A stretch of 64,000 bases of DNA from Escherichia coli (GCF_013122565.1 NZ_CP053258.1); one strand, 5' to 3'; positions 2,778-49,407 are shown, numbered from the stretch's first letter. Numbers and translations: made by a program. The notes: a model not told the origin generated them from the letters alone.

Positions 2778-4855
<2,078 letters not shown>

Positions 4856-30319: not shown

Positions 30320-30328
30320 TTCTCACCC

Positions 30329-31993: not shown

Positions 31994-32011
31994 AAATCTG
32001 CCTCAGAGAAT

Positions 32012-32824: not shown

Positions 32825-33105
32825 GGGTTAATTCCCTTTGGTAAGATTTTTTCGACATCGGTATGTGGTCGGGGAATAACGTGTACGGCTTTTACTTCGC
32901 CGACGTTACGCGCAGCTGCGGCACCTGCGTCTGTTGCCGCTTTTACCGCCCCGACATCACCACGAACGATGACGGTCACCAGCCCGGAACCTATTTTTTC
33001 GTAGCCGACCAGCAAAACATTTGCTGACTTCACCATGGCGTCTGCGGCCTCTATGGCGGCAGTTAAGCCTTTGGTTTCTACCATTCCTAACGCTTCTTGT
33101 TGCAT
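32821..33105 (-). CDS. pduA: microcompartment shell protein PduA (BMC hexamer)
   Basis: 94 aa [30 protein letters not shown]...; first gene of the operon. Confidence 0.95.
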
Positions 33106-33617
33106 AAAGACCTCGTCTGGATTTTTTTGACGATATGACTATAAAAAAAAGCGAGGAAAAAGAATGGCTGACTTAATCGGCTAATGAGAAAAATTAATAG
33201 AGGGCAAATATTATAAAATTGCTTTTATGAACTATATGTTGTTAATTTATTAGTTGTTTTGTGGATATTTCAATGTGAATTAATTGCGTTGGCTGAGGAG
33301 GTTAATCGCGGATAAAATTTCGTTGGGTTTGGTTCGCGGAAGGGAATTGTGATATTTGTTTAAATTTTATTATATCATGATGACAATTTTTTATTGTAAA
33401 AGCTTGGCGGTAATTATTACTTTCAACACTGATTAACGCTGTGTTGCATGATTCTGCAATGACAATAATTTGTTATCTTAGCACGATTTTTACACGAGTC
33501 TGTCATGCATGTTGGCAATATTTTCTGCAGAGCAATTTTTTATAGTTGCGCTCGGTATACACAACAATCAGCGCATAGTTGGCTGATAAAGAAAAACTCC
33601 GTAAAGAAGGTGTCACT
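33106..33617. promoter_or_regulatory. AT-rich divergent control region between pduA and pduF (pdu and pduF-pocR promoters, presumed PocR sites)
   Basis: 512 bp non-coding, strongly AT-rich, separating the divergently transcribed pduA and pduF; individual promoter elements not resolved. Confidence 0.6.
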
Positions 33618-34427
33618 ATGAATGATTCACTCAAGGCGCAATGCGTTGCCGAGTTTTTGGGCACTGGACTGTTCCTCTTTTTTGGCATTGGTTGTTTGTG
33701 CGCCCTGAAAGTTGCCGGGGCAAGTCTGGGACTGTGGGAAATTTGTATCATTTGGGGGTTAGGGATTTCGCTTGCTGTTTACCTTACGGCAGGTATTTCC
33801 GGCGCTCATCTTAACCCGGCTGTTACCATTGCTCTGTGGCTGTTTGCCTCTTTCCCAGCCCGTAAAGTGCTGCCATTTTGTGTGGCGCAATTAGCGGGTG
33901 CCTTTGGTGGTGCGGTTCTGGCATATTCTCTATACAGCAATTTGTTTATCGATTTTGAATCTGCTCACAATATGGTGCGTGGTAGTGCAGAAAGTTTACA
34001 ACTCGCCAGTATCTTCAGTACTTATCCGGCAGCGGCGATTAATGTATGGCAAGCTGCGTTGGTCGAAGTGGTCATAACGTCCATGTTAATGGGGTTGATT
34101 ATGGCGTTGACCGATGACGGTAATGGCGTACCCAAAGGACCGCTTGCGCCTTTACTTATTGGTATTCTGGTTGCTGTTATTGGTGCTTCTACCGGACCAT
34201 TAACCGGTTTTGCCATGAATCCAGCGCGTGATTTTGGACCTAAGATTTTCACCTGGCTTGCGGGGTGGGGGGAAATTGCGATGACTGGTGGACGCAATAT
34301 TCCTTATTTCATTGTACCCATTATTGCACCGATCATTGGGGCATGTGTTGGTGCGGCGATTTATCGCTATCTCATTGCAAAGAATTTACCTGTCAATAGT
34401 GTAACGCCTAAAGAAATTAGCGAATAA
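33618..34427 (+). CDS. pduF: propanediol diffusion facilitator (aquaporin/GlpF family)
   Basis: Translation MNDSLKAQCVAEFLGTGLFLFFG... with two NPA motifs (HLNPAVT and NPARD). Confidence 0.93.
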   Translation: MNDSLKAQCVAEFLGTGLFLFFGIGCLCALKVAGASLGLWEICIIWGLGISLAVYLTAGISGAHLNPAVTIALWLFASFPARKVLPFCVAQLAGAFGGAVLAYSLYSNLFIDFESAHNMVRGSAESLQLASIFSTYPAAAINVWQAALVEVVITSMLMGLIMALTDDGNGVPKGPLAPLLIGILVAVIGASTGPLTGFAMNPARDFGPKIFTWLAGWGEIAMTGGRNIPYFIVPIIAPIIGACVGAAIYRYLIAKNLPVNSVTPKEISE

Positions 34428-34629
34428 CGAAATACTCTGGCAGTTATAAACGTTTATTTTTTTACTGTTTGTGATCTGCTTTCCGAACTTATTAAAAAGT
34501 CTCCCGCTTCACGGAGGCTTTTGTTATTGTCCTTTGTGCTTCTCGTCAGTAAATCATCAGGGATGATGTGAAGATTAAATGTAAAACAATTGTTTTGCTA
34601 TAACAATAAATTAACTGGGAGGTTTTATC

Positions 34630-35544
34630 ATGATTTCTGCGGCGACACTTAATTCAGAACTCATTAATAAAATCGCGCAGGATTTTGCGCAGGCGACCAG
34701 CCTTGCGGTTGTCGTGGTCAATATTCACGGCGATGAAATTTCCGAGCTGTTTAACTTCACTCCATTTTGTCAGATGATGCGGCAACACCCTCAGCTAAGC
34801 ACTCGATGTCGCATGAGTGATCGTTGTGGGGGCCTGGAAGCCTCTAAGTCCGATCAGCCTTGTATTTATCGCTGTCATGCCGGATTAACCGATTTCTCTA
34901 TTCCTCTGGTAATCGCCGGACATTTAGTTGGTTTTGTATTGTGCGGGCAAGTTCGTCTGCGTAATGATGATGTCGATTTGGTTGATATTCTGAATGTCGA
35001 TGATTGCTGGCAGGCAGATCCCGAATTACTTAATGAATTCCGCAAAGTCCCTGAGATGGATTACTCAAGAGTTATGGCCTCTGCTGATTTGTTGAAGTTG
35101 ATTGTGGAAAATTGCCTCAAAAAACAACTCAATTTTGTGGTTATTAAAGAAAACAAATCTCAGTCAGATTCGGTGCGCCAGACTCGTGCGCCTAATCCCC
35201 ACGACAATAAAATGAAAAAAGCTTTACGCTATATTGATGCACATTTATCAGACGATTTGCGTCTGGAGGATGTCGCCTCACATGTTTACCTAAGCCCTTA
35301 TTATTTCAGTAAGTTATTTAAGAAATACCATGGAATCGGGTTTAATGCGTGGGTAAACCAACAACGGATGGCCAGCGCTCGTGAGTTACTGTGCCATAGC
35401 GACTGGAGCATCGCCAGCATTGCGCGTAATTTAGGTTTTTCCCAAACCAGTTATTTTTGCAAAGTTTTCCGTCAGACTTATCAGGTTACGCCGCAGGTGT
35501 ATCGGCAGCAAGTGAATGAAAATGCGGCGATGGAAATGGTATAG
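34630..35544 (+). CDS. pocR: AraC-family regulator of pdu/cob (PocR)
   Basis: 304 aa; N-terminal PocR sensory domain and C-terminal AraC-type HTH. Confidence 0.93.
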   Translation: MISAATLNSELINKIAQDFAQATSLAVVVVNIHGDEISELFNFTPFCQMMRQHPQLSTRCRMSDRCGGLEASKSDQPCIYRCHAGLTDFSIPLVIAGHLVGFVLCGQVRLRNDDVDLVDILNVDDCWQADPELLNEFRKVPEMDYSRVMASADLLKLIVENCLKKQLNFVVIKENKSQSDSVRQTRAPNPHDNKMKKALRYIDAHLSDDLRLEDVASHVYLSPYYFSKLFKKYHGIGFNAWVNQQRMASARELLCHSDWSIASIARNLGFSQTSYFCKVFRQTYQVTPQVYRQQVNENAAMEMV

Positions 35545-35654
35545 AGTAAATGCCCCAAAAAAAGAGGACGGTTTAAATAAACTCTGGAATGAATAATTAA
35601 CGTTATTTACCTGTTATGGGAAAAGTAAAATCAGCTCATAACATACGCTGACAG

Positions 35655-35905
35655 GTGTGGCACATTTGTGCCTGGGAAGAGGGTGAAAATCCCTCGCAGC
35701 CCCCGCTGCTGTAATGCTGACAAACCCGAAAATGCCACTGATCGCGAGATTGGGAAGGTCGGGAGAGGATGACGCTAAGCCAGAAGACCAGTCTGTCAGT
35801 CAATACCAACAACTTCGGTGGGAAGTGGGTTGCCCGGAAGCGTTCGGTAGAGTACAGGCGCGTCTTTATACCCCTACCACCCTGAAAGGATCAGGGTATG
35901 GCGGC
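35655..35905 (+). promoter_or_regulatory. cobalamin (AdoCbl) riboswitch
   Basis: Conserved elements read directly: GGGAAGAGGGTGAAAATCCCTCGCAGCCCCCGCTGCTGTAA, GCCACTG...GGGAAGGTCGGG, and B12 box AAGCCAGAAGACCAGTC. Confidence 0.75.
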
Positions 35906-36028
35906 ATCATTTAGTTCTTTCATCGCAGTGCCGACAGGCACCAGGGATGCATTCAAGGTGTGGCAATATTGTTTCATGGCTTATCAACCAGAGCGCCATT
36001 ACAGGAAATTAAGTGGAGGGCGAGAGGC

Positions 36029-36466
36029 ATGAAAACGATAAAACCCGAATCGATAGCTCTTTTTTGCCTCTTATCTGGAGATGTGGATCTGGCGAAACAT
36101 CTGGCGGAAATATTGCCAATAACCTGTTTTGTTGGTGAGGACTGGCAGCAAGATTTCCAGCCTCTTAACGGTGGGCCTGTGCAATCGTTATCAGATGCGT
36201 ATAGCGATTATTCAGTGCTGCTATTGATAGCAGCTGAAAGCGAGATATCCGTACCAGAATGGCTCGCTCATTCTGAGGGAACGACGGTAATTTTGATTGC
36301 AGAACACAATGCCCGTTTACTGACTGGTCCGGCTGGTGGGGCTGTAGCATTAATCCATTATCTGAATGAAATCTGTCATTCCAGAGAAACCGCTGTCAAT
36401 GACGCATTTTGTCATACGTTAACACGAGGAAGTCGGGCTATTCCACAATGCCATCTTCTTTCGTAA
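36029..36466 (+). CDS. hypothetical protein downstream of the B12 riboswitch (ORF may extend to GTG 35960)
   Basis: ORF 35960..36466; internal ATG at 36029 is preceded by a GGAGGG Shine-Dalgarno; no family recognised by eye; sits where the cbi genes would be. Confidence 0.4.
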   Translation: MKTIKPESIALFCLLSGDVDLAKHLAEILPITCFVGEDWQQDFQPLNGGPVQSLSDAYSDYSVLLLIAAESEISVPEWLAHSEGTTVILIAEHNARLLTGPAGGAVALIHYLNEICHSRETAVNDAFCHTLTRGSRAIPQCHLLS

Positions 36467-36599
36467 TGGATTGAGAATGCTGGATTTTTAATTATATTAC
36501 GCGCAGTATTAATCGTGTAAATGTTTTGCGGTCAGCAACGGTGGGGGATCCATTGTTCTGTTCAATGAATACCATCATACAATTGAATCAGGAGTCGGT

Positions 36600-37145
36600 A
36601 TGATGATTTTGGTGACGGGGGGCGCACGGAGCGGGAAGAGTCGCCACGCAGAGGCGCTTATTGGGAACTCTTCACAGGTTCTGTATATCGCCACCTCGCA
36701 AATCCTTGATGATGAGATGGCTGCACGGATAGAACATCATCGGCAAGGCCGTCCGGCGCATTGGCGCACGGTGGAGCGTTGGCAACATCTTGATGAATTA
36801 ATTCATGTAGACATTAACCCGCATGAAGCTGTGTTGCTGGAATGCGTTACCACAATGGTGACTAATCTGTTGTTTGATTATGGCGGCGATAAAGACCCTG
36901 ATGAATGGGATTATCAGGCGATGGAACAGGCGATTAATGCTGAGATTCAGTCGTTGATTGCCGCCTGCCAACGTTGCCCCGCAAAGGTTGTATTAGTGAC
37001 TAACGAAGTGGGAATGGGGATTGTGCCGGAGAGTCGTCTGGCACGACATTTTCGTGATATTGCCGGGCGGGTAAATCAGCAGCTGGCCGCTGCGGCAAAT
37101 GAAGTATGGCTGGTGGTTTCGGGTATTGGAGTAAAAATCAAATGA
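36600..37145 (+). CDS. cobU: adenosylcobinamide kinase / adenosylcobinamide-phosphate guanylyltransferase
   Basis: 181 aa with P-loop GGARSGKS; matches CobU. Confidence 0.95.
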
Positions 37146-37885
37146 GTAAATTATTTTGGGCGATGCTCTCATTTATTACGCGTCTGCCTGTACCGCGTCG
37201 CTGGTCCCAGGGACTGGATTTCGAGCATTATTCTCGCGGTATTATTACTTTTCCTTTAATTGGATTATTGCTTGGCGCGATTAGCGGGCTGGTCTTCACG
37301 GTGCTGCAGGCATGGTGTGGCGTACCACTGGCGGCACTGTTTAGCGTGCTTGTGCTGGCGCTGATGACCGGGGGATTCCACCTGGACGGCCTCGCCGATA
37401 CCTGTGATGGCGTATTTTCTGCACGTAGCCGCGATCGCATGTTGGAAATCATGCGTGATAGCCGTTTAGGCACCCACGGCGGTCTGGCATTGATTTTTGT
37501 TGTACTGGCAAAGATTCTGGTGTTAAGCGAGTTGGCTCTGCGTGGCGAACCGATCCTTGCATCGCTGGCGGCAGCATGTGCGGTCAGCCGCGGGACTGCC
37601 GCATTATTGATGTATCGTCATCGTTATGCCCGGGAAGAAGGGCTTGGCAATGTGTTCATTGGCAAAATTGATGGGCGACAAACCTGCGTCACACTCGGCT
37701 TAGCCGCTATTTTTGCTGCCGTATTATTGCCGGGTATGCATGGTGTGGCTGCTATGGTGGTGACGGTGGTGGCGATTTTCATCCTCGGTCAGCTTCTCAA
37801 ACGTACGCTGGGCGGGCAAACCGGCGATACGCTGGGAGCTGCTATAGAGCTTGGTGAACTGGTCTTCCTGCTGGCACTGCTATAA
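37142..37885 (+). CDS. cobS: cobalamin 5'-phosphate synthase
   Basis: Translation [21 protein letters not shown]..., polytopic membrane protein; start overlaps the cobU stop (ATGA). Confidence 0.93.
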
Positions 37886-37896
37886 AGAGACGTGAC

Positions 37897-38976
37897 ATGC
37901 AAACACTTGCCGATTTACTGAATACGATCCCTGCTATCGATCCTGCCGCTATGTCGCGTGCACAACGGCATATTGACGGGTTACTCAAACCTGTTGGTAG
38001 CCTTGGAAGGCTGGAGGCGCTTGCCATACAACTGGCAGGAATGCCGGGGTTGAATGGCATACCGTATGTGGGCAAAAAAGCGGTACTGGTTATGTGTGCC
38101 GATCACGGCGTCTGGGAGGAAGGGGTCGCTATTTCCCCAAAAGAAGTGACAGCCATTCAGGCTGAAAATATGACCCGCGGAACAACCGGCGTGTGTGTGC
38201 TGGCAGCACAAGCGGGCGCTAACGTCCACGTAATTGATGTTGGTATTGATACTGTTGAACCTATCCCCGGGCTTATCAACATGCGTGTCGCACGAGGTAG
38301 CGGCAATATTGCTTCAGCTCCGGCAATGAGTCGCCGTCAGGCTGAAAAGTTGCTTTTGGACGTCATATGTTATACGCGGGAGCTGGCAAAAAACGGTGTC
38401 ACGCTGTTTGGTGTAGGTGAACTGGGGATGGCAAACACGACACCGGCAGCGGCAATAGTCAGCACAATCACTGGCCGGGATCCTGAAGAAGTGGTTGGGA
38501 TTGGCGCAAACCTGCCGACAGATAAACTGGCTAATAAAATTGATGTTGTGCGCCGGGCGATTACGTTGAATCAACCAAATCCGCAGGATGGCGTTGATGT
38601 TCTGGCAAAAGTGGGGGGATTTGATTTGGTCGGAATGGCTGGCGTGATGTTAGGCGCTGCTTCCTGCGGTTTACCCGTGTTGCTGGATGGATTTCTTTCT
38701 TATGCTGCTGCGCTCGCAGCCTGCCAGATGTCTCCTGCAATCAAACCGTATCTCATTCCTTCTCACCTGTCGGCAGAAAAAGGGGCGCGTATAGCGCTGT
38801 CGCATTTGGGGCTGGAGCCTTATCTCAATATGGATATGCGTTTAGGTGAGGGGAGTGGCGCAGCTCTGGCGATGCCCATCATCGAAGCTGCTTGTGCGAT
38901 ATACAACAACATGGGCGAACTTGCTGCCAGTAATATTGTTCTACCGGGGAAAACGTCTTCTGATTTGAACAGTTAA
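37897..38976 (+). CDS. cobT: nicotinate-nucleotide--dimethylbenzimidazole phosphoribosyltransferase
   Basis: 359 aa; matches CobT. Confidence 0.95.
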
Positions 38977-39037
38977 AAACGAAAAGTCTGATAAAAGCTA
39001 TACTTAACGAACAGCTTTCGCGACTTAGGAAAGGGAC

Positions 39038-39964
39038 ATGATGCGTCGTGTAAATATTCTTTGCTCATTTGCTCTGCTTTTTGCCAGCCATACTAGCCTG
39101 GCGGTAACCTATCCATTACCTCCAGAGGGTAGCCGTTTAGTGGGGCAGTCGCTTACTGTAACTGTTCCTGATCACAATACCCAGCCGCTGGAGACTTTTG
39201 CCGCACAATACGGGCAAGGGTTAAGTAACATGCTTGAAGCGAACCCGGGCGCTGATGTTTTTTTGCCGAAGTCTGGCTCGCAACTCACCATTCCGCAGCA
39301 ACTGATTTTGCCCGCCACTGTTCGTAAAGGGATTGTGGTTAACGTCGCTGAGATGCGTCTTTATTACTACCCGCCAGACAGTAATACTGTGGAAGTCTTT
39401 CCTATTGGTATCGGCCAGGCTGGGCGAGAAACCCCGCGTAACTGGGTGACTACCGTTGAACGTAAACAAGAAGCACCAACCTGGACGCCAACGCCGAACA
39501 CTCGGCGCGAATATGCGAAACGAGGGGAGAGTTTGCCCGCATTTGTTCCTGCGGGGCCCGATAATCCCATGGGGCTGTACGCGATTTATATTGGCAGGTT
39601 GTATGCCATCCATGGTACCAATGCCAATTTTGGTATTGGACTTCGGGTAAGTCAGGGCTGTATTCGTCTGCGCAATGACGATATCAAGTATCTGTTTGAT
39701 AATGTTCCTGTAGGTACTCGTGTGCAAATTATCGACCAGCCAGTAAAATACACCACTGAACCAGATGGCTCGAACTGGCTGGAAGTTCATGAGCCGCTGT
39801 CGCGCAATCGTGCAGAATATGAGTCTGACCGAAAAGTGCCATTGCCTGTAACCCCATCTTTGCGGGCGTTTATCAACGGGCAAGAAGTTGATGTGAATCG
39901 CGCAAATGCTGCGTTGCAACGACGATCGGGAATGCCTGTGAATATCAACCGTAACGGATTTTGA
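39038..39964 (+). CDS. ldtA: L,D-transpeptidase (YkuD domain), LdtA/ErfK
   Basis: Signal peptide plus YkuD catalytic motif [24 protein letters not shown]. Confidence 0.93.
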
Positions 39965-40137
39965 CATTCAAAACGTCTGGTTTTTCGGTCTGAGTAAGCA
40001 TTACGTCATGCAGAACAGGTTGTTTCGAATCATACAAATCATAATTTTCTTCTCATATGCGCATCTCTTATGAGCATAATCGTTATACTCTTCTGATTTA
40101 TACATGTTTGCTGATGACATGATCAATGGAAAAGAGA

Positions 40138-41103
40138 ATGACGAAACAGAAAAAAAACAGCCGCTGGCAGGGTTACGATCCTCGCTACATATACTCGCTC
40201 GTGGTCAGACGTTATTTTGCGGATATGAAAACCAAGATTGAGATTGCAGAGGAGCTTGGCGTTTCCCGCTTTAAAGTTGCCAGATTGATCGATGAGGCGA
40301 TCGAACAGGATTACGTGAGGTTTATCTTCCCTAAGCAGCAAGCGATGGATGAAGAAATCGCCAATAATCTACGGAAAAAATTTCATCTGGAAGATGCAAT
40401 TGTTCTTTCAGTTGCTGAATCCTGGACGACGCAAGAAGAACTCAATCACAAATTGGGTGAAGTCACCGCTGAATATCTTATGCAATCTCTTCATGAAGGT
40501 ATGAAAGTGGGGATCGCCTGGGGACGTGTATTATCAAGCACGGTCAGTAAGTTGAGCAAGTTGCCTCCTTTAGACGTTGTGCAGTTATCTGGCGTACATC
40601 CGGGGATAGAGTTTAGTCAAGGGCCAATAGATCTTATTCATAAGATCGCTGCCATTTCGCAGGGAAAAGCGCACCCAATGTACGTGCCGATGTGGGTCGA
40701 TGACGAAGAGCTTGCTGCCAGACTGGCAGGTGATCCTGCGGTATTAGATACACAGCAATATTACTCACAGTTGGATGTGGTTATCACCGGGATAGGTGAC
40801 TGGAAATCAGGTTCTTCAAGCTTGTATAAAATATTTCCGGATACCTGGTGCGAAGCTTTGTTTCAACAAGATATCGCTGCGGATGTGTGTATCTCGTTGG
40901 TCAACAGGGAAGGGAAGATTCTTCATAGTCCTATTGAACGTCTGGGATTTGGCATTTCGACGGATCAACTACAAAAAGCCAAAAAAGTGATTGGTGTCGC
41001 TGGAGGAGAAGAAAAATATGAAGGCATTCTTGCTTCGCTGAAATCCGGACTTTTGAATGTCTTAATTACTGATTTTGATACGGCCATTAAACTTCTGGAT
41101 TAA
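40138..41103 (+). CDS. SorC/DeoR(Bsu)-family transcriptional regulator with sugar-phosphate-binding domain
   Basis: N-terminal HTH (KIEIAEELGVSRFKVARLI) and C-terminal SorC-type sugar-binding domain; ATG 40138 preceded by AAGAGA; first gene of the island. Confidence 0.8.
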   Translation: MTKQKKNSRWQGYDPRYIYSLVVRRYFADMKTKIEIAEELGVSRFKVARLIDEAIEQDYVRFIFPKQQAMDEEIANNLRKKFHLEDAIVLSVAESWTTQEELNHKLGEVTAEYLMQSLHEGMKVGIAWGRVLSSTVSKLSKLPPLDVVQLSGVHPGIEFSQGPIDLIHKIAAISQGKAHPMYVPMWVDDEELAARLAGDPAVLDTQQYYSQLDVVITGIGDWKSGSSSLYKIFPDTWCEALFQQDIAADVCISLVNREGKILHSPIERLGFGISTDQLQKAKKVIGVAGGEEKYEGILASLKSGLLNVLITDFDTAIKLLD

Positions 41104-41154
41104 TAGCCATATCAGTGAAGAAAGGGCAGTACCGCTGATTCTGCCCTTTTAATT

Positions 41155-41613
41155 TCAGGATGCTGCGAGCGTATCCTCTACATATTTAGCCACGTGCGTT
41201 GCAGGTAAATTGCGGCAAGTCTCAACAAAGGCGTTATCCTGAAACAGTGTGAATAAACGACGCAATATCGACATATGTTGATCACTGGTGGCAAATGCCA
41301 GGTTAAACATAATGCTACAATCAACTGTTAAATCAGCATCTTCCATTTGCCCGAAAGTGACATCATTGGCGAAACGAACAATACTGATACTGTTTACATT
41401 TACCAGCGTGTAATCGGCATGGGGAATGGCGATACCCTGACCGTTTGCCATCATTAGTCCTGTCGGATAGCTTTTTTCACGTTCCAGGCAGGCGTCAATG
41501 TATTCTGCAGTGATGTAGCCTTTTTCCAATAATTGCGTACCGGCAAAGGTGATCGCAGTTTGATAGTCACTGATGCTGTTATCAACATCATTCACCAGAA
41601 TTTCAAGTTTCAT
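41155..41613 (-). CDS. PTS enzyme IIA component (PTS_EIIA_2, fructose/mannitol/galactitol type)
   Basis: 152 aa with phospho-His motif GIAIPHA. Confidence 0.85.
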   Translation of the reverse strand: MKLEILVNDVDNSISDYQTAITFAGTQLLEKGYITAEYIDACLEREKSYPTGLMMANGQGIAIPHADYTLVNVNSISIVRFANDVTFGQMEDADLTVDCSIMFNLAFATSDQHMSILRRLFTLFQDNAFVETCRNLPATHVAKYVEDTLAAS

Positions 41614-41623
41614 TGCACACCTG

Positions 41624-41908
41624 TTATTTCAACATCTCTTCTTTAACTGCAGCGAAAATCTCATCTTCGCCCAGACCTGTCAGTAATCCAGCGCCAACGA
41701 TGACACGAGTAGTAATGGCCGGGTTATCGAGTTTGGTCGATGAAACCACCAGGTCATAGCTGTTGAAGGTATCGCTGGTGCATGCCATTAACGAAGATTT
41801 ATCGACTTGCGCTTCAATTTTCTCTTCTTTCAGGAAGTCCTGCAGTACAGAGACCATGATGGAAGATGAGGCAATTCCGTTTCCGCAAACTACTAAGATT
41901 TTTTTCAT
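41624..41908 (-). CDS. PTS enzyme IIB component (galactitol/ascorbate type)
   Basis: 94 aa; N-terminal KILVVCGNGIASS with phospho-Cys. Confidence 0.85.
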   Translation of the reverse strand: MKKILVVCGNGIASSSIMVSVLQDFLKEEKIEAQVDKSSLMACTSDTFNSYDLVVSSTKLDNPAITTRVIVGAGLLTGLGEDEIFAAVKEEMLK

Positions 41909-41931
41909 TTGATTATTCCTCTGTAAAAGAT

Positions 41932-43302
41932 TTAAAGCGCTTTTTCCAAATCCGTTTCAATCTGGCGACGTGATTTTTGTTTAATTAAGTATCCAATAGA
42001 TAACAAAAGGATACCTGCCATCAAATAGCCAATGATTCCAACATGGCTCAGGGCGGCAAACAGACCAGTAAATGGATTCGCTGACGGGTTAAGTGAAGAG
42101 TACATTACGCTGGCATCCGGGTTTGTACCAAATTTCTGGAAGACTTCGTTGGTAGCCGGTGCCATCCACGACGCAATATACAGACCACCACCGAACAAAA
42201 TGATCGAGGTCACCCAGGTGCGAATAATGTTGCCATTAAAAACAGGTACCATGCAGGCAATAAAAAACACAAACTGAGAGAGGTCACCCAGTGGCATAAC
42301 GCGGTTGCCGGGCAAGATCACGGCGAGGATCACAATGACCGGGATCAGTAATAATGCAGGGGCGATAACTGATGGATGACCCACAATCAGAGCAGTGTCC
42401 ATACCAACAGTGATTTGACGATCCGGGAACCGTTTGACCAGTTTTTTGCGTGCTACGTTGGAAAGCGGAACAAGTCCTTCCATCATGATAGAGGTCATAC
42501 GTGGTAACAGAAGCATGACCGCAGCCAGATACATCCCTAACTGTAGGCTGGCGATTATGGTGTGGTATGGGGATTTCCAGCCATAACCACAAAAGCCCAA
42601 CAAAATACCAATAATAAAACCAACCATAGTTGGATCGCCGAGAATGCCAAACCGTTTTTGAATAGTTTCGGCGGTCACATTCAGATTACGGAAGCCTGGG
42701 ATGCGATCATAAATCCAGTTGAATGGATAAGCGAAAAGTAAGTAGGTATTGGCAACCGGGTGAGAGATCGCAACACCTTTTGGCAGGTTAAAGAATTTTT
42801 CGTTATTTTTAGCACCAAGATCGGCAGCGATCAGCGCCCAGACATGGAATAGCGCGGCGGTCAATGCGCCATACAGGAAACTACCAGAATAGACGCCAAC
42901 AATTGCCCCCATTGACGCATTTTGATGAAGGTTGAAAACATCAACGTTAACACAGTCAGTCAGGCGGGCGACCAGCATTGCAATATTTACCGCAACACAG
43001 AGGGGAATAATGATAGCGCCCATGCTGGAGCCAAATCCCATAACCGCAGTCGCTGCGCCACCAACATCGATGGCACTGAGCGAGGAACCTGTTGCTTCTG
43101 CTAATCCGGTGACTGCCGGTTGCATTTTTTCCAGCATCAGTTTGATGGTCATGGTTAGCGCAATGAAACCAATGCCTACTTTGATGGCAGACGAGATACA
43201 TTCAGAAAGAGGACGGCCAAGTATCTTCATCAGTACCAGGAAGATGACCGGGATAAATATAAAATTTCCCAGATCGTTTATAAATTGCGTGATCAGTTCC
43301 AT
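41932..43302 (-). CDS. PTS enzyme IIC permease (galactitol-class)
   Basis: 456 aa polytopic membrane protein; GatC/SgcC-like. Confidence 0.85.
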   Translation of the reverse strand: MELITQFINDLGNFIFIPVIFLVLMKILGRPLSECISSAIKVGIGFIALTMTIKLMLEKMQPAVTGLAEATGSSLSAIDVGGAATAVMGFGSSMGAIIIPLCVAVNIAMLVARLTDCVNVDVFNLHQNASMGAIVGVYSGSFLYGALTAALFHVWALIAADLGAKNNEKFFNLPKGVAISHPVANTYLLFAYPFNWIYDRIPGFRNLNVTAETIQKRFGILGDPTMVGFIIGILLGFCGYGWKSPYHTIIASLQLGMYLAAVMLLLPRMTSIMMEGLVPLSNVARKKLVKRFPDRQITVGMDTALIVGHPSVIAPALLLIPVIVILAVILPGNRVMPLGDLSQFVFFIACMVPVFNGNIIRTWVTSIILFGGGLYIASWMAPATNEVFQKFGTNPDASVMYSSLNPSANPFTGLFAALSHVGIIGYLMAGILLLSIGYLIKQKSRRQIETDLEKAL

Positions 43303-43305
43303 ACA

Positions 43306-43842
43306 TTAACCCTCAGATTTTTCATCATCTGGTCGGAAACCCATATTCCAGCGTACATCAGCGGGCTTAACCAGCAATGCATTATCGTTACGTTCAGCTT
43401 CTAGTAAGTTCTTTTTAGAATTTTCTCTGGCGGTGGTGAAGTCGAATGGGTTATCCAACCATGCATCGACAATCATTTTGCTGTATTCGAGATCGTTGAC
43501 CCGGCAACCCAGTCCAATAACTTGTGCGTTATTGCTGAGTCGCGCCCGCTTTGCGGAGTAGGGGTTAGTAACCGCAACGGCTCTTATGCCCCAGTGTTTG
43601 TTGATCTGACAAGTAAAGCCAATGCCAGTCCCACAAATGTAAATTCCCAGACGGCACTCATCGCGTTGAATAATGCCTGCCATTTCGTCGGCCAGACGCG
43701 CGAAGTTATTGACACCTTGTTCCTTACATGTGACGGGATCGTACACGATCTCCATGTTTTTCTCTTCTATGAGGTATTTTTTTATCTCCTCTTTACGTGC
43801 AAAACCTACATCATCGCTTGCGATAGCAATCTTTGTTTTCAT
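43306..43842 (-). CDS. RpiB/LacA/LacB-family sugar-phosphate isomerase
   Basis: 178 aa; KIAIASDDVGF start and active-site CGTGIG motif; first gene of the minus-strand PTS operon. Confidence 0.8.
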   Translation of the reverse strand: MKTKIAIASDDVGFARKEEIKKYLIEEKNMEIVYDPVTCKEQGVNNFARLADEMAGIIQRDECRLGIYICGTGIGFTCQINKHWGIRAVAVTNPYSAKRARLSNNAQVIGLGCRVNDLEYSKMIVDAWLDNPFDFTTARENSKKNLLEAERNDNALLVKPADVRWNMGFRPDDEKSEG

Positions 43843-44190
43843 TTCATTTTGCCTGTCGTTAAGTAACTAAAGCCAAGTATGCTGTTGGTAAATATTGGTT
43901 GTCAATTGAGATCTAAATCACAAAATTTATAACTGATTGATTTTTAATGAATTAAAAACCAATAAAAACAAATAAAAAATAAATTAAGCCAATTAAAACA
44001 AAGTAGGCTTGCACAAGCACTTTGCAATTAATAATAAAAACACATTAAATATCAATCATATATATGAATTGCCAAACATTGTCTTTATTGGGCTTATTTG
44101 TACTTTCTACAGTTAGTGTTTGTTTTTGTTTGCATCATCTGTGCTATGCTTGGCGTTTTCTAAGATGGGCAATAGATTTCAGGAGGAAGG

Positions 44191-44946
44191 ATGTATCTGG
44201 TTGATGAAAGGCGAAAGTTAATACTTGAAGACTTAATGTCGGCAGGTACGGTCTATGTCAGTGATCTTGCACGAAAGTATGAAGTAACGTATGAGACCAT
44301 CAGGAAAGATTTGACCCATCTTGAACAAAAAGGGCTGCTGATCAAAAGCCATGGTGGGGCGACTTTAAAGCAAAGGGCCATAGAGCATCCCTTTCAGGTC
44401 AGGGAAAAAGAAAATAACTCTTATAAGAAGGCGATAGCTCGTAAAGCGCTTGATTTCATTCCGCCTAATAGTTCGATGATTATCGGTACGGGCAGTACCA
44501 CTTTTGAGCTGGCTAACCTGTTATGTATGAAGTCTGGGTTTAAAATCTTCACAGATTCGCTCCCCGTTGCCAGTGTGTTGATTGAATCTGACAATCAGGT
44601 TTTTCTCTTTGGCGGCGAACTGCGTAGAAAGAGTTCCTCAGTGTTTGGGGGGTGGGCGGTATCTATGATCAACGATATACATGTTGATCTCTGTTTCATT
44701 GGAACCGACGGCTTTAGTAACATGACTGGTCCATCGACGCCTTCTTCTTCTGATGCGTTTTTGGATCGCACGATAATTTCGCACTCAGACAAAAAATATA
44801 TCCTCGGTGATTACACCAAGTTTGAGCGCAGCAGTTTGTTTAAGATCTGCGACTGGTCGGAGATCACCGCCCTTATTACCAACGATCATGCCGACAAAGA
44901 GGGGATTGCCGAAGTCGCAAAATACACGTCAGTAATAACCTGTTAG
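44191..44946 (+). CDS. DeoR-family transcriptional regulator
   Basis: 251 aa; N-terminal DeoR HTH (RRKLILEDLMSAGTVYVSDLARKYEVTYETIRKDL) and C-terminal DeoR-C sensor domain; AGGAGG Shine-Dalgarno. Confidence 0.85.
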   Translation: MYLVDERRKLILEDLMSAGTVYVSDLARKYEVTYETIRKDLTHLEQKGLLIKSHGGATLKQRAIEHPFQVREKENNSYKKAIARKALDFIPPNSSMIIGTGSTTFELANLLCMKSGFKIFTDSLPVASVLIESDNQVFLFGGELRRKSSSVFGGWAVSMINDIHVDLCFIGTDGFSNMTGPSTPSSSDAFLDRTIISHSDKKYILGDYTKFERSSLFKICDWSEITALITNDHADKEGIAEVAKYTSVITC

Positions 44947-45123
44947 AACTCCCTACAACACGCCTTCTCCCTTCGAATCAGCTTTGCCAAATGTAATCAT
45001 TTCCAAATTATCAAGTGAGCATCCATGGTGATGCTTGCTTAGCGCCCTTTATTGAATGCATCCTCTGCATATTGCCAGTTGCACCTCATTTTTTGCGAAG
45101 AAATCATTTTTTGAATCACGGTT

Positions 45124-45262
45124 TGCTCATATGAGCATAAATGCTGTCGCCATTATGTGCTTTTTTGTGATCTGGATTTAATTTCTCAGATCTCGTCATT
45201 TATCCACAGGATCGTTGTGCTATAACTGCTCATATGAATATTGTTCAATGCTCATGTGAGCA
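45124..45262. promoter_or_regulatory. three copies of a TGCTCATATGAGCA-type palindromic operator upstream of the second PTS operon
   Basis: TGCTCATATGAGCA at 45124..45137 (perfect 14-bp palindrome), TGCTCATATGAATA at 45227..45240, TGCTCATGTGAGCA at 45249..45262. Confidence 0.6.
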
Positions 45263-45284
45263 TTGTGGGGTGAGGGGGAAGGAT

Positions 45285-45728
45285 ATGATATCGATCAGTG
45301 TTGCCGATGGTGCGGGACTACAGAACTACGATGCCGTGCTTGAACATATTTATAACACGCATCGTGAAACGAATACGGTGAAAGAGAGCTGGCTCAATGC
45401 TATGCGTAAACGCGAAGCGGAATATCCGACAGGAATAGAACTGGAAGGTTATTCTATCGCTATACCACACTGTGATAGTGAACATGCGAATCAACCGGCT
45501 ATTTATATCATCCGTCTGCCAGACGCAATACCTGTGAACAGGGCTGATGAAGATGGAATATTGTGGGTCAGACTCGTCGTTAATCTTATTGTTACGGATC
45601 CTGCTGACCAGCTTCGATTGTTAAAGTCATTATTTAACCATCTCCAAAATGAAGAATTTTACCAAAACTTACTGACACTTCCCGTCGATGATGCAAAAGC
45701 ACTTTTTGTGTCCAAAATAATCCAATAG
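45285..45728 (+). CDS. PTS enzyme IIA component (PTS_EIIA_2)
   Basis: Phospho-His motif SIAIPHC; ATG 45285 preceded by a GGGGGAAGGA ribosome-binding site; ORF-track start 45234 is probably an upstream extension. Confidence 0.85.
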   Translation: MISISVADGAGLQNYDAVLEHIYNTHRETNTVKESWLNAMRKREAEYPTGIELEGYSIAIPHCDSEHANQPAIYIIRLPDAIPVNRADEDGILWVRLVVNLIVTDPADQLRLLKSLFNHLQNEEFYQNLLTLPVDDAKALFVSKIIQ

Positions 45729-45746
45729 TAAAAACTGGAGTTTATT

Positions 45747-46040
45747 ATGATTAATATTCTTGTTGCTTGTGGTAGCGGTGTCGCTACATCTACGCTTGCT
45801 GCTGATGAAGTGAAGTCAGTATGTGCTGAATATGGTATTACGGCATTTAAAATCAACAAATGCAGTATGGCTGAACTTTCTTCTGAGATGGCTCATGCAG
45901 ATATTGTACTCACAACTAATAACTATAAAGGTGATATTGGGAAACCACATATGAGTGTTGCAGGTTTTGTAACGGGTATTAATGAAGGAGCATTACGCAA
46001 GAAATTAGGAGAGTTATTAACTGAATTAGCAAATAGCTAA
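45747..46040 (+). CDS. PTS enzyme IIB component (galactitol type)
   Basis: 97 aa; INILVACGSGVATS phospho-Cys motif. Confidence 0.85.
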   Translation: MINILVACGSGVATSTLAADEVKSVCAEYGITAFKINKCSMAELSSEMAHADIVLTTNNYKGDIGKPHMSVAGFVTGINEGALRKKLGELLTELANS

Positions 46041-46060
46041 ACCTGACAGGAATAATAAAA

Positions 46061-47314
46061 ATGGAAATGTTGAAAAATTTAATGGAAACCATCACCGGAA
46101 TGGGGGCAACTGCAATACTGCCGCTGGTGATATTTATTTTAGGTCTGGTGTTCAGAATGAAACCAGGTGCCGCGATCAAGTCGGGCATCACAGTCGGTAT
46201 TGGTTTTATTGGTTTAGGTTTGGTTGTTGGTTTATTAAATAGTTCATTACAGCCAGCTATTGAGTATTACTCAAAAGTAGGTAGTGGTTTTACGGTTGCA
46301 GATATTGGTTGGCCAGCAGTCGGTGCTGCTGCATGGGTAGCACCTTTTGCCGCATTAGTGATACCAGTTGGCATCGTACTTAACCTGATACTGGTGCGCC
46401 TGAAATTAACCAAAACGTTAAATGTTGATATCTGGAACTATATGCATTTTTTAGTTCCGGGCGCTCTGGCATATTTTGTGTTCGACAGTTTTATCATCGG
46501 CTTCTCTGTCGCGGTGGCTTTGAGTATTGCGGCTCTGTTTATTGGCGATTTGATTGCGCCCAGATGGCAAAAATATTATGGACTCGAGGGAACAACCTGT
46601 ACCACGATGATTCATATCGGCTGGACTCTACCGTTCGCCTGGGTAGTAAATAAAATCATTGATTACATCCCAGGGTTAAATAAGTTAGATGTTGATTTAA
46701 ACAGCGTGCAAAAACGCCTGGGTGTCTTTGGTGAACCTGCAATTATCGGTGTTATCGTTGGCGCATTACTCGGAGTTTTAACGAAACAGGCAATTACCAC
46801 AATTGTTCCCATGGCGATGGGGGTTGCTGGCGTAATGGTATTATTGCCTAAAGTGGTCGGTGTGCTGATGGAAGGTCTTAACCCGATTGGGAAAAGTGCT
46901 AAAGAAATCATGCAAAAACAGATGGGTAAAGATGCAGAATTAAACATCGGTATGGATTGTGCACTGGCGTTGGGGGATCCGGCTACGGTCACCGTGACAG
47001 TAATTACCATTCCTTTAACCATGCTATGTGCTCTGGTATTACCTGATATTAAGATCTTCCCAATCGGCGTATTGATGTCAATTATTTATATGACCACCAT
47101 GACCGTAATGGCGAGCAACGGTAACGTGATTCGTTCGATTATCTCGACCTTGTTATTCTGCGTTGTAGTGATGTATTTAGGCGGTTATGTCGCACCAGGG
47201 GCAACGCAATTTTTAGCTGGAGCCGGTGTAGGCTTGCAAGGACAAGGTACTGATTTTGTATTAACCGGCCCGTGGGAAATTTTAACCTATTGGTTGAGTA
47301 CCGTATTACATTGA
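46061..47314 (+). CDS. PTS enzyme IIC permease (galactitol-class)
   Basis: 417 aa polytopic membrane protein; GatC-like. Confidence 0.85.
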   Translation: MEMLKNLMETITGMGATAILPLVIFILGLVFRMKPGAAIKSGITVGIGFIGLGLVVGLLNSSLQPAIEYYSKVGSGFTVADIGWPAVGAAAWVAPFAALVIPVGIVLNLILVRLKLTKTLNVDIWNYMHFLVPGALAYFVFDSFIIGFSVAVALSIAALFIGDLIAPRWQKYYGLEGTTCTTMIHIGWTLPFAWVVNKIIDYIPGLNKLDVDLNSVQKRLGVFGEPAIIGVIVGALLGVLTKQAITTIVPMAMGVAGVMVLLPKVVGVLMEGLNPIGKSAKEIMQKQMGKDAELNIGMDCALALGDPATVTVTVITIPLTMLCALVLPDIKIFPIGVLMSIIYMTTMTVMASNGNVIRSIISTLLFCVVVMYLGGYVAPGATQFLAGAGVGLQGQGTDFVLTGPWEILTYWLSTVLH

Positions 47315-47336
47315 TTTAATAATCTGGAGTTTTAAC

Positions 47337-47981
47337 ATGGCAAAAATATTACCTTCTATATTTGGCGCGGATATTTTACGCCTGAAAGATGAAATTCATT
47401 TTCTGGAAGAGGAACAAACCGAAATATTGCACGTTGATTTAATGGATGGCACTTATGTCAGTAATATTGCCTTTGGCCCAAATCAAATAGCAGCAATGAA
47501 AAAAGCCAGTTCGATGATCTTTGATGTGCACATGATGCTGGCAAATCCTGAGCGACATATTGATGATGTAATCAATACCGGGGCGGAGATGATTTCTGTA
47601 CATTATGAATCGACGCCACATGTACATTATATTATTCAAAAAATCAAAAAAGCGGGTCGCAAAGCAGGTGTTGTGCTTAATCCTGGGACACCTGAATCTG
47701 TCATCGAGTATTTATTAGATGATATTGATTATATATTGTTAATGACAATTAACCCAGGGCAACCAGGCCAGACATTTATTCATAAAAGTCTGGAGAAAAT
47801 CCGTAATACCAAAAAAATGATATCTGGCAGAGATATTCAAATTGAAGTGGATGGTGGCGTTAATCTTGATAATGTAAAACAAGTTAAAGAAGCAGGGGCT
47901 GACCTTATTGTTGTTGGTGGTGCCTTATTTAACAAACAGCCTCGTGAAAGTTATCAGGCATTGAAAATCGCTATTCAGTGA
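47337..47981 (+). CDS. ribulose-phosphate 3-epimerase family protein (Rpe/AlsE/SgcE-like)
   Basis: 214 aa TIM-barrel epimerase; HVDLMDG and IEVDGG motifs. Confidence 0.85.
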   Translation: MAKILPSIFGADILRLKDEIHFLEEEQTEILHVDLMDGTYVSNIAFGPNQIAAMKKASSMIFDVHMMLANPERHIDDVINTGAEMISVHYESTPHVHYIIQKIKKAGRKAGVVLNPGTPESVIEYLLDDIDYILLMTINPGQPGQTFIHKSLEKIRNTKKMISGRDIQIEVDGGVNLDNVKQVKEAGADLIVVGGALFNKQPRESYQALKIAIQ

Positions 47982-48078
47982 TCACAATCTAAAAATTTCA
48001 CATCCAGTTAAGTGAGGTTTTCGATTTCATATCGGGAGGAAAACCTCAGCTAAAAAATGTCTTTAATGGAGAAAAGTA

Positions 48079-48831
48079 ATGAGTAATTTTGCAGGTAAAG
48101 TGGTTTTAGTTACCGGAGGTGCTCACGGTATTGGCAAAGGGATAGCTAAACAATTTGCTGATCGTGGTGCACATACTGTTATTGTTGACTATAACGAAGA
48201 GAACGGCAAGGCCACTGCAGCAGAGTTAACTTTTGGCGATGTTAAATCGCTGTTTGTTAAAACAGATGTCTCTGATCCACAGGCATTAGTGGATGTACGG
48301 GAAAAAGTATTTGCTACCTTTGGTCGTATTGATGTGTTGATATTAAATGCCGGTGTGGCATTTGCCAATAAAGTTAACAATATTTCTTTTGAGGAATGGA
48401 ATAAGACTATCGCAATTAATTTATCGGGATTATTTAATACCGTTAAGGCGTTTTATGATGATTTCCTGACAAATAAGGGATCTATTGTTTATATCTCATC
48501 GGGATCAGCACTTTCGGGGACTGGAGGCGGTGTGAGTTATCCAGCCAGTAAAGCGGGAGGCGAAGGGTTGATTCGCGGTCTGGCGAAGGAGTTAGGACCA
48601 AAAGGCGTCAATGTTAATGCGATTGCTCCCCGCTTAATAGACACCGGAGAGATGATGCGGGTCAACTATCCGACACAAGCCGATTTAGACGCTGTCCTGG
48701 AAAAAATACCCGTCCGTCGTCTGGGAACTATCGATGATGTGGCTAACCTGGCAATATTTTTGGCAGATAAAGATAACTCTTATATTCAGGGACAAACCAT
48801 TTTAATGGATGGTGGCCGGACTATTGCTTAA
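48079..48831 (+). CDS. short-chain dehydrogenase/reductase (SDR)
   Basis: 250 aa; TGGAHGIGKGIA Rossmann motif and YPASK catalytic Tyr-x3-Lys. Confidence 0.85.
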   Translation: MSNFAGKVVLVTGGAHGIGKGIAKQFADRGAHTVIVDYNEENGKATAAELTFGDVKSLFVKTDVSDPQALVDVREKVFATFGRIDVLILNAGVAFANKVNNISFEEWNKTIAINLSGLFNTVKAFYDDFLTNKGSIVYISSGSALSGTGGGVSYPASKAGGEGLIRGLAKELGPKGVNVNAIAPRLIDTGEMMRVNYPTQADLDAVLEKIPVRRLGTIDDVANLAIFLADKDNSYIQGQTILMDGGRTIA

Positions 48832-48846
48832 AAAGGGAGAGAAAAA

Positions 48847-49407
48847 ATGAGTGTTCAGGAAAATACTATTAATATTCTGCATGAATTAGAGAGTAATGCG
48901 CTGAAGATTGACGATGCTCAGGCTTCACAGTTCATTTCGCAAATCAGAAATGCCCGGCATATTTTTTTGCAGGGAGCTGGTCGCAGTGGCATTGCTATTC
49001 GCGCTTTTGCTAATCGCTTGCTGCATTTAGGTTTTTCAGTAAGCGTTGTGGGAGAAATATCATCACCGCATACTCAACCTGGAGATCTATTAATTATTGG
49101 GTCAGGCAGTGGTGAAACTACCAGTTTGAAAAGTCTGGCACAAAAAGCAGTTGATAGCGGAGTAAACGTCGCTCTGGTAACTATGAAAGCTGATTCAACG
49201 ATCGGTAAATTAGCTCAATCTGTGTTGGTACTACCAGGAAGTGTGAAAGACGATAACAATCGTGTTGCAGGCGCTTTCGCGCAACCAATGGGCTCAGCTT
49301 TTGAGCAACTCTGCTTTATTACTTATGATGCAATTGTTCTGGAGTTGATGTCTGAACTGGGTGAAAGCAGTGCCACAATGTTTACCCGACACGCTGATCT
49401 GGAATGA
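48847..49407 (+). CDS. SIS-domain sugar-phosphate isomerase (6-phospho-3-hexuloisomerase-like)
   Basis: 186 aa single SIS domain (LQGAGRSGIAIRAF...IGSGSGET). Confidence 0.75.
   Translation: MSVQENTINILHELESNALKIDDAQASQFISQIRNARHIFLQGAGRSGIAIRAFANRLLHLGFSVSVVGEISSPHTQPGDLLIIGSGSGETTSLKSLAQKAVDSGVNVALVTMKADSTIGKLAQSVLVLPGSVKDDNNRVAGAFAQPMGSAFEQLCFITYDAIVLELMSELGESSATMFTRHADLE

Follow-up and report, generated by a model that had tools for sequence, protein, structure and literature searches.

Which protein reads a 14-bp palindrome that is repeated in front of a sugar-utilization operon of an Escherichia coli accessory island, and how much of that island does it control? The question is raised by a stretch of 64,000 nucleotides of E. 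coli DNA (NZ_CP053258.1, assembly GCF_013122565.1), referred to here as the window, whose island encodes two phosphotransferase systems (PTS) and two regulators, one of the SorC family and one of the DeoR/GlpR family. A preliminary description of this DNA had reported the palindrome at three promoter regions of the island and had proposed that one of the two regulators used it to control the whole locus, including its own gene. Our analysis makes it quite probable that the palindromes are operators of the SorC-family regulator, predicted to act on the operon PTS-IIABC/rpe/SDR/hxlB (SDR, short-chain dehydrogenase/reductase) and probably also on the regulator gene (here called sorC) itself.

Occurrence and conservation of the palindromes

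The three copies described upstream of the second PTS operon were found exactly where they had been placed. One of them, O1 (TGCTCATATGAGCA, 45124-45137), is a perfect 14-bp palindrome with 0 mismatches, and the other two, O2 (TGCTCATATGAATA, 45227-45240) and O3 (TGCTCATGTGAGCA, 45249-45262), depart from it at two positions and one position, respectively. The related variants upstream of sorC were also recovered as two weaker copies that overlap each other, TTCTCATATGCGCA at 40050-40063 (2 mismatches) and ATCTCTTATGAGCA at 40063-40076 (3 mismatches). When up to two mismatches to TGCTCATATGAGCA were allowed, four copies were observed in the 64-kb window against 0.26 expected, a number reached in none of 100 shuffles; when up to three were allowed, all five matches of the window were confined to the intergenic regions upstream of sorC and upstream of the PTS operon, which bears out the earlier statement that the motif is not seen elsewhere in the window. 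A weight matrix, built from 34 sites of other species only in order to avoid circularity, gave the same picture: its six best hits in the window started at 45124 (26.0 bits), 45249 (23.7), 45227 (13.2), 40050 (12.1), 40063 (10.7) and 45008 (9.9), all of them in the same two intergenic regions, and the best background score was 8.2 bits. In 433 kb of DNA collected on the basis of protein similarity, the matrix gave 38 hits of at least 16 bits, every one of them upstream of the SorC-linked operon. This count is partly circular for the training sites and is informative for the absence of such hits elsewhere.

The palindromes are also conserved between species. A search with the SorC protein, taking one genome per species, retrieved 12 orthologous loci (57-81% protein identity) from other Enterobacterales, and a palindrome is present upstream of the orthologous IIA gene in all 12. 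An alignment of the last ~200 bp before the IIA start codon in 13 species (mean identity 66%) revealed a series of invariant blocks which are, in order, O1, a second site O1' (GC...ATG, 24 bp after the O1 start), TGTGATC followed by A/T-rich DNA, TGnTATAA(A/C), O2, O3 and the ribosome-binding site. The elements between deoR and the IIA gene of the second PTS (IIA2) in the window are given below, with distances from a transcription start of the PTS operon predicted near 45233.

45008..45021, no strand: remnant of a further palindrome, O4, TTATCAAGTGAGCA, degenerate, 4 mismatches, 9.9 bits
45124..45137, no strand: O1, putative upstream auxiliary operator, TGCTCATATGAGCA, 26.0 bits, centre at about -102, span about -109 to -96
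45147..45160, no strand: O1', weak second site, TCGCCATTATGTGC, beginning 23-24 bp after the O1 start, possible partner half-operator
45166..45186, plus strand: TGTGATC block, TGTGATCTGGATTTAATTTCT, centre at about -59.5, TGTGATC then A/T-rich DNA, invariant in 13 species
45218..45226, plus strand: putative extended -10 element of the PTS operon, TGcTATAAC, abutting O2; TGnTATAA(A/C) near-invariant in 13 species
45227..45240, no strand: O2, TGCTCATATGAATA, left half conserved and right half degenerate, 13.2 bits, about -6 to +8
45249..45262, no strand: O3, TGCTCATGTGAGCA, full palindrome, 23.7 bits, about +17 to +30, between the putative promoter and the ribosome-binding site

Throughout the 13 Enterobacterales the GCTCA/TGAGC arms are invariant, and the flanks and the central 2-4 bases vary (ATAT, ACAT, ATGT, ATTT, CTTG, TAAT). 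Constant arms with a free centre fit a protein that contacts the arms, unlike a compensated RNA stem. The TGAGC right half of O1 and the GCTC and TGAGCA of O3 are invariant in the 13 species, and an O2-type half-site, TGCTCAYRTGAtt, precedes O3 by 20-22 bp in each of them. At the sequence level this fits a pair of half-operators about two helical turns apart; similar pairs, with an O2-like half-site beside a full palindrome, are found in four remoter relatives (Glaesserella, Rouxiella and the loci L018 and L019). In the E. coli window O2 and O3 are 22 bp apart, start to start, and O1 and O2 are separated by 103 bp (~ten helical turns). Between O1 and the TGTGATC block, the GC and ATG columns invariant in 13 species (cross-species consensus tGCGCttATGtGAtt) suggest that O1' may be a further site, its matrix score being low. 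O4 is situated ~120 bp upstream of O1 (120-122 bp in other genera) and is present in most other genera: an intact, TGCTCATAAGAGCA-type copy at about -289 from the start codon occurs in most of L002, L004, L006 and L009-L013, that of L009 being only half-conserved.

The TGTGATC block (45166-45186) falls outside the palindrome family, and is possibly a class I CRP half-site with a poor right half, or an UP-like element; a centre near -59.5 is a typical position for CRP. The CRP-like elements of the island, at 45166-45181 and 43907-43922, are distinct from the palindromes.

To the view that the palindromes are no local operator at all, but a dispersed element resembling repetitive extragenic palindromic (REP) sequences, the site of an unlinked global factor or a hairpin in the leader RNA, we give almost no credence. 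A test for dispersed repeats, whether REP-like or similar to the enterobacterial repetitive intergenic consensus (ERIC), found copies only within the island in the 64-kb window, and in the 433 kb of related loci no off-target copy of at least 16 bits. With regard to a global factor, CRP was rejected as the binder, since TGCTCA-N2-TGAGCA does not fit the CRP consensus TGTGA-N6-TCACA (16-bp core). In favour of a role other than that of an operator, O3 would be transcribed and can form a hairpin of 4-5 bp, the E. coli leader (45233-45290) folds better than its shuffles (-14 kcal/mol, z = -3.0), and some hits of the metagenome scan described below have no SorC gene. However, O1 and O4 lie upstream of the putative promoter, and folding of the alignment gave only the 4-bp stem of the palindrome, with zero covariation and no Rfam match. 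A conserved leader RNA element was likewise discarded: the E. coli fold pairs the left half of O3 with the ribosome-binding region GUGAGGGGG, a pairing that is not conserved in other genera.

Association of the motif with sorC and deoR

The genes between which the predicted operators lie, and the operon they would control, are the following.

40126/40138-41103, plus strand: SorC-family regulator gene, PF04198 sugar-binding domain and N-terminal helix-turn-helix
41155-43842, minus strand: Gat-family PTS IIA, IIB and IIC, and RpiB-type isomerase
44191-44946, plus strand: DeoR/GlpR-family regulator gene, closest to AgaR
45285-45728, plus strand: Gat-family PTS IIA (second PTS)
45747-46040, plus strand: Gat-family PTS IIB (second PTS)
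46061-47314, plus strand: Gat-family PTS IIC (second PTS)
47337-47981, plus strand: ribulose-phosphate 3-epimerase (rpe)
48079-48831, plus strand: SDR dehydrogenase
48847-49407, plus strand: 6-phospho-3-hexuloisomerase (hxlB)
45285..49407, plus strand: proposed target operon PTS-IIABC/rpe/SDR/hxlB, with the same gene order adjoining sorC in the loci of relatives

The reading frame of sorC opens at ATG 40126, but its true start is probably ATG 40138 (321 aa), because the RefSeq annotation uses this second ATG and the homologues have 321 aa. The gene content of the pathway (Gat-family PTS, SDR or zinc dehydrogenase, rpe and hxlB) suggests a polyol substrate.

Judging by position, the DeoR/AgaR-like regulator (44191-44946) could be expected to bind the palindromes and control the operon downstream of its gene: deoR adjoins this region, ending 178 bp before O1, and DeoR/GlpR-family repressors often control neighbouring PTS operons. 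Comparison of the loci argues strongly for the other regulator. In seven genomes (Izhakiella, Erwinia typographi, Erwinia sp. OLFS4, Pseudocitrobacter, Brenneria and two Pantoea) the order is sorC-palindromes-IIA-IIB-IIC-rpe-SDR-hxlB, with neither a DeoR gene nor the PTS/RpiB cassette, which in E. coli, Entomohabitans, Klebsiella oxytoca, Citrobacter and two Enterobacter is found as an insertion separating the end of sorC from O4. The palindromes are thus kept without deoR in these seven genomes, and also in remoter relatives. Conversely, sorC is missing from three loci that carry the DeoR cassette, those of Enterococcus faecalis, Cedecea neteri and Gilliamella; their DeoR orthologues are 73%, 78% and 74% identical to that of the window, all come with the rpiB-PTS cassette, and no palindrome was found in their intergenic DNA. 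The most telling of the three is Gilliamella, in which the genes for the second PTS, epimerase, SDR and SIS proteins are all present as a fusion behind the promoter controlled by DeoR, without the palindrome. Taken together, each of the 17 loci with sorC that protein similarity had brought up has the motif, and the intergenic DNA of the three DeoR-only loci has none. Since the motif co-occurs with sorC and not with deoR, we assign it to the SorC-family protein, and binding by the DeoR/AgaR-like regulator has next to no likelihood. An operator of the DeoR/GlpR family (AgaR-like) was also rejected on the ground that the motif persists without DeoR, is missing where DeoR occurs alone and is missing from the divergent rpiB/deoR region, which carries other conserved boxes that travel with DeoR.

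The association with sorC extends to distant relatives and to other gene arrangements. The motif is kept beside sorC in Glaesserella (62% SorC identity), Rouxiella (60%), L018 (46%), a Stellaceae genome bin (42%) and L020 (40%). In Glaesserella sorC is convergent with the operon, and O2 and O3 stand in front of IIA; in Rouxiella sorC lies inside the operon, and O2 and O3 are at the operon promoter. At the three loci with 40-46% SorC identity, sorC adjoins an operon for a SIS isomerase, an FGGY kinase, an ABC (ATP-binding cassette) transporter and an epimerase, without a PTS, and the intergenic DNA next to sorC carries CGCTCATATGAGCG-type sites; in L018 and L019 a half-site is found ~20 bp from the full site.

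Metagenome contigs were also scanned for the O2/O3 pattern TGCTCAYRTGA-N10-12-GCTCAYNTGAGC, blind to genes, which yielded 66 loci. This enterobacterial island accounts for 39 of them, and SorC was found in all 11 of those whose DNA reaches far enough. Another nine are high-GC contigs (GC 58-66%; L034, L037, L041, L046, L056, L058, L067, L084 and L090) in which a distant gene of the SorC/DeoR subfamily, 26-32% identical, starts 20-100 bp from the palindrome pair; this pair consists of two full GCTCAYRTGAGC palindromes 22 bp apart (21-22 bp over the distant SorC loci as a whole). The neighbouring genes in L034 encode a ribulokinase-like kinase and a DhaK-like (dihydroxyacetone-kinase-like) protein, both among the divergent genes, and LsrB/RhaS-like proteins.

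As for the cassette itself, the DNA from 41155 to 44946 behaves as a separate mobile module, which occurs alone in E. faecalis, C. neteri and Gilliamella; the 73% DeoR identity to E. faecalis suggests that it has passed between Firmicutes and Enterobacterales. A SIS/HxlB-like gene of its own closes the cassette in K. oxytoca, Citrobacter, E. faecalis and Cedecea, and is ~50% identical to the HxlB of the operon as measured in L011 and L012.

L011, 5251-5778: SIS/HxlB-like gene of the cassette
L012, 11000-11527: SIS/HxlB-like gene of the cassette
L021, 3457-3996: SIS/HxlB-like gene of the cassette
L022, 4417-4941: SIS/HxlB-like gene of the cassette

The E. coli window has no such gene (41103-41155), and its first PTS module may thus need the hxlB of the operon assigned to SorC.

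Reach of the operator within the island

Upstream of sorC the predicted sites are weaker, and they were resolved as follows.

40050-40063, no strand: site A, TTCTCATATGCGCA, 12.1 bits, present in a subset of species only
40063-40076, no strand: site B, ATCTCTTATGAGCA, 10.7 bits, TGAGC half invariant in 12 species
40086..40099, no strand: site C, TACTCTTCTGATTT, O2-like, 23 bp after B

Sites A and B score above every background hit in the window and are a probable autoregulatory operator of sorC. Site C overlaps a TATACT -10-like hexamer (40084-40089); it reads TACTCTTTTGA in other species, with T.TACTC.T.TGA invariant in 12 of them, and its operator and promoter roles cannot be told apart from the sequence. 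Self-control of sorC is plausible but less secure than control of the PTS operon, because only the TGAGC half-site and the TACTCTTTTGA element are conserved across species there.

The third promoter region proposed for the motif, that of the minus-strand PTS operon divergent from deoR, does not carry it. The sequence cited for this region, TCATATATATGA, does exist, at 44056-44067, one base off the position given earlier (44057..44068). The GCTC/GAGC arms are lacking, and when the rpiB-deoR intergenic DNA of six species is aligned, the sequence belongs to the central, unconserved part. The 25 best matrix hits, which go down to 1.2 bits, include none from 43843-44190. The sequence was therefore dismissed as a third operator, and the motif marks two promoter regions of the island, not three.

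That a single regulator runs all three promoter regions through this motif is accordingly very unlikely. The motif does stand at two of the three regions, and both PTS modules seem functionally linked, being fused into one operon in Gilliamella, but the absence of a site from 43843-44190 and the occurrence of the cassette alone elsewhere, with its own regulator and no palindrome, speak against such a scheme. We reject the single-regulator model of the whole island because the rpiB/deoR region has no site and has conserved DeoR-linked elements of its own. What stands of the earlier proposal is thus the operator reading, with SorC as the regulator chosen by co-occurrence, and a plausible but weaker control of its own gene; what does not stand is control of the whole locus. 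The island appears to comprise two nested regulons rather than one, and the predicted SorC operator does not control all of it.

The rpiB/deoR region itself contains repeated CCAAT/ATTGG boxes between 43870 and 43993 (GCCAAG at 43872, GTTGGT at 43884, ATTGGTT at 43894, AACCAAT at 43957 and GCCAAT at 43988) and, near deoR, a conserved GTTTGTTTTTGTTTGCATCATCTGTGCTATG (44118-44148). Similar CCAAT/ATTGG boxes recur in the DeoR-only loci, so that these elements travel with the DeoR gene; together with GTTTGTTTTTGTTTGCATCATCTGTGCTATG they are candidate operators of the DeoR/AgaR-like regulator. In the same region a near-consensus CRP-type site, TGAGATCTAAATCACA (43907-43922), lies beside the TTGACA/CATACT promoter of the minus-strand rpiB-PTS operon; its counterparts are TGTGATTTAAATCACA in Cedecea and a perfect TGTGATCAAGATCACA in Gilliamella.

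The island measures ~9.5 kb, is located between ldtA and a tRNA-Asn gene and was found in 225 of 5,426 complete E. coli genomes (~4%). Its pdu/cob/ldtA flank is ~98.3% identical to complete E. coli genomes. The flank at 30000-39900 comprises pdu (propanediol utilization), pocR and cobUST; no complete E. coli genome is at least 99% identical to it (best 98.4%), so the source strain would seem to stand somewhat apart from the sequenced genomes. Within E. coli the DNA between deoR and IIA2 varies to an unusual degree, with 80-99% identity across 216 genomes; in five divergent alleles the only changes in the palindromes O1, O2 and O3 are at central or degenerate positions, and O1 is invariant. The changes within this region (44947-45123; alleles L024-L026) cluster in the stretch that separates the O4 remnant from O1; in strain 1506, 12 bp just ahead of O1 are deleted. 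Inside the coding sequence of the second IIB gene (IIB2), at ~45944, a half-site-like CC(A/G/C)CATATGAG(C/T)G was noted, which recurs at the same place in loci of several genera (L002 15952, L003 12140, L005 7370, L006 12156 and L023 4767; 5-10.6 bits). This element probably reflects coding constraint; a weak internal operator is the alternative.

The regulator, its predicted action and its relatives

The SorC-family protein contains the PF04198 domain (residues 76-324, E 1.5e-50), as do all the homologues listed. Its N-terminal helix-turn-helix is of the DeoR/SorC/LsrR type, as judged from full-length alignments that span residues 20-70 to the structures 2w48, 8r7y/7bhy and 4l5i; Pfam helix-turn-helix matches are weak (E 0.02), and CggR, of the winged-helix type, matches in the effector domain only. 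The regulator thus belongs to the helix-turn-helix (Bacillus DeoR/Klebsiella SorC/LsrR) branch of the family. An alignment of ten motif-linked regulators, down to 26% identity to the SorC protein of the window, has 18 invariant columns, which include S43, R44, F45 and R49 of the predicted recognition helix, and the signature SRF(K/R)xxR is found in 10 of 10. Elsewhere in the family this helix reads YRTTISR (Klebsiella SorC), TRLKVSR (LsrR) and SRPTVSR (B. subtilis DeoR), and we know of no report that the operators of Klebsiella SorC or LsrR match the present motif. The correlation of the SRF(K/R)xxR helix with the motif is what would be expected if the helix reads the GCTCA arms.

These data suggest the following model. 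Without inducer, a SorC tetramer (a dimer of dimers) would occupy the composite operator O2+O3, which covers the predicted start and the early leader, and so block initiation or early elongation. O1 and O1', and O4 in other genera, would bind more regulator, giving stronger repression, cooperativity and possibly a loop that encloses the promoter and the CRP-like site; O1 and the weak O1' may be a second half/full pair. A phosphorylated intermediate of the pathway would probably release the repressor, as in other members of the family, and the weaker related sites at the sorC promoter would provide autoregulation. The DeoR/AgaR-like regulator and the divergent rpiB-PTS cassette (41155-44946) would constitute a separate module, placed between sorC and the SorC operator and having its own control sites.

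Several observations weigh against this interpretation. Although the conserved TGnTATAA(A/C) directly abuts O2, as expected for an operator overlapping a promoter, a simple consensus promoter scan made no call there: the PTS-operon promoter was not listed, and it has no good -35 element. Promoter and start are placed by conserved consensus-like elements only. At the sorC promoter the sites score weakly, and their palindromic form is conserved in part only. The centres of the arms are ~7 bp apart, compared with the TTGAA-N6-TTCAA arrangement of the B. subtilis DeoR operator. Finally, 18 of the 66 metagenome loci have no SorC gene in the DNA covered, many of them being short; these SorC-less loci (L038, L042, L053, L059, L068 and L085, with GC 0.70-0.74, and 12 others) carry palindrome pairs such as TGCTCATATGAGCATGTATATTGCTCATATGAGC. 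In L038 the divergent neighbour of the pair is an XRE-type helix-turn-helix reading frame (3261-3737, minus strand), identified with Pfam, so the pair is not exclusive to SorC in all bacteria. An NCBIfam search on the neighbours of the SorC-less hits was uninformative.

A variant in which the SorC-family protein is an activator or a dual regulator, with O1/O1' (about -109 to -72) as activating sites, appears rather unlikely. Klebsiella SorC, whose structure (2w48) makes it the closest solved relative by sequence, reportedly acts both as activator and as repressor; the predicted promoter, lacking a good -35 element, may need an activator, and the position of O1 is typical of upstream activators. 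However, O2 and O3, the sites with the strongest conservation, are placed at the predicted start and beyond it, a repressing position, and activation could be supplied by the conserved CRP-like TGTGATC block. LsrR, moreover, is a repressor. Among the characterized relatives, B. subtilis DeoR and CggR are repressors as well (PMC11229326).

The predicted repression by the SorC-family protein through these palindromes provides a concrete candidate operator and a regulator assignment for an uncharacterized accessory sugar-utilization island, which is also present in Klebsiella, Citrobacter, Enterobacter, Erwinia, Pantoea and others, and links an SRFK recognition-helix signature to a DNA motif in the SorC family, where few operators have been defined. 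We found no description of this operator, of the locus or of the island's SorC regulon in the literature, the coverage of which was incomplete, and a full-text search for the motif string returned a sole match, on an unrelated subject (extradiol dioxygenases). Modest uses can be envisaged, such as reporter or induction screens for the substrate, or a compact repressor-operator pair. The operator is of an ordinary kind, and only the nesting of two regulons and the broad distribution of the motif together with its helix signature are mildly unusual; the understanding of SorC-family regulators as a class is unchanged.

As a broader and more tentative proposal, GCTCAYRTGAGC may be the shared operator of an undescribed clade of the SorC/DeoR subfamily that is marked by the SRF(K/R)xxR helix, would be widely distributed, with members in Enterobacterales and Pasteurellaceae as well as in an alphaproteobacterial genome bin and unassigned high-GC metagenome contigs, and would govern sugar-phosphate pathways with an epimerase and a SIS isomerase. 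In the enterobacterial members, three or four operators ~103-122 bp apart might loop a CRP-dependent promoter, and a foreign DeoR cassette (73% to E. faecalis) might have been inserted without disturbing this control.

The arrangement can be compared with several known systems. It resembles that of the looping repressors E. coli DeoR, GalR and LacI, which have operators at the promoter and others at least ~100 bp upstream of it, a CRP-like site lying in between; these belong to unrelated families, and looping is here conjectured from spacing alone (103 and 120-122 bp). Among members of the same subfamily, E. coli LsrR is homologous over its full length (PDB 4l5i; NF011947). This regulator of autoinducer-2 uptake is a tetrameric repressor, which a phosphorylated sugar-like ligand releases; besides a divergent operon, its own gene is under its control. 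The present regulator scores 82 bits against an equivalog cut-off of 486 bits for LsrR, which has the helix TRLKVSR and other target genes and operator. Klebsiella pneumoniae SorC is the best solved-structure match by sequence (PDB 2w48, E 7e-23, residues 20-324) and likewise regulates an enterobacterial PTS operon, but the similarity is low, the helix is YRTTISR and the target is a mannose-family sorbose PTS rather than a Gat-family PTS with rpe/SDR/hxlB; a description of its operator for comparison was not found.

The closest parallel is provided by B. subtilis DeoR, although the regulator of the island is not an orthologue of this protein, nor of LsrR or Klebsiella SorC. Orthology to B. subtilis DeoR was rejected from a score of 132 bits against a cut-off of 420 for NF053881 and from the different motif and recognition helix: ATTGAA-N6-TTCAAT and SRPTVSR there, a compact 14-bp GCTCA-N2-4-TGAGC and SRFKVAR here. 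The sites of B. subtilis DeoR lie at -60 to -21, unlike the main sites of the island, which are over or downstream of the predicted start, and here there are extra distant palindromes, O1 and O4, 103-122 bp away. As the spacing of the half-sites is tighter than in the operator of B. subtilis DeoR, the docking geometry probably differs. Nevertheless, the two proteins share the same domain plan and full-length homology (NF053881, E 2e-38; PDB 8r7y), and B. subtilis DeoR also has its target operon, dra-nupC-pdp, beside the regulator gene. In a structural study published in 2024, the 39-bp operator of B. subtilis DeoR was shown to consist of a full palindrome and a half-conserved second site and to be occupied by a tetramer of the protein (a dimer of dimers), neither site being bound alone (PMC11229326). 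The predicted composite operator of the island, with O2 as the half-site and O3 as the full palindrome, follows the same plan in mirror image.

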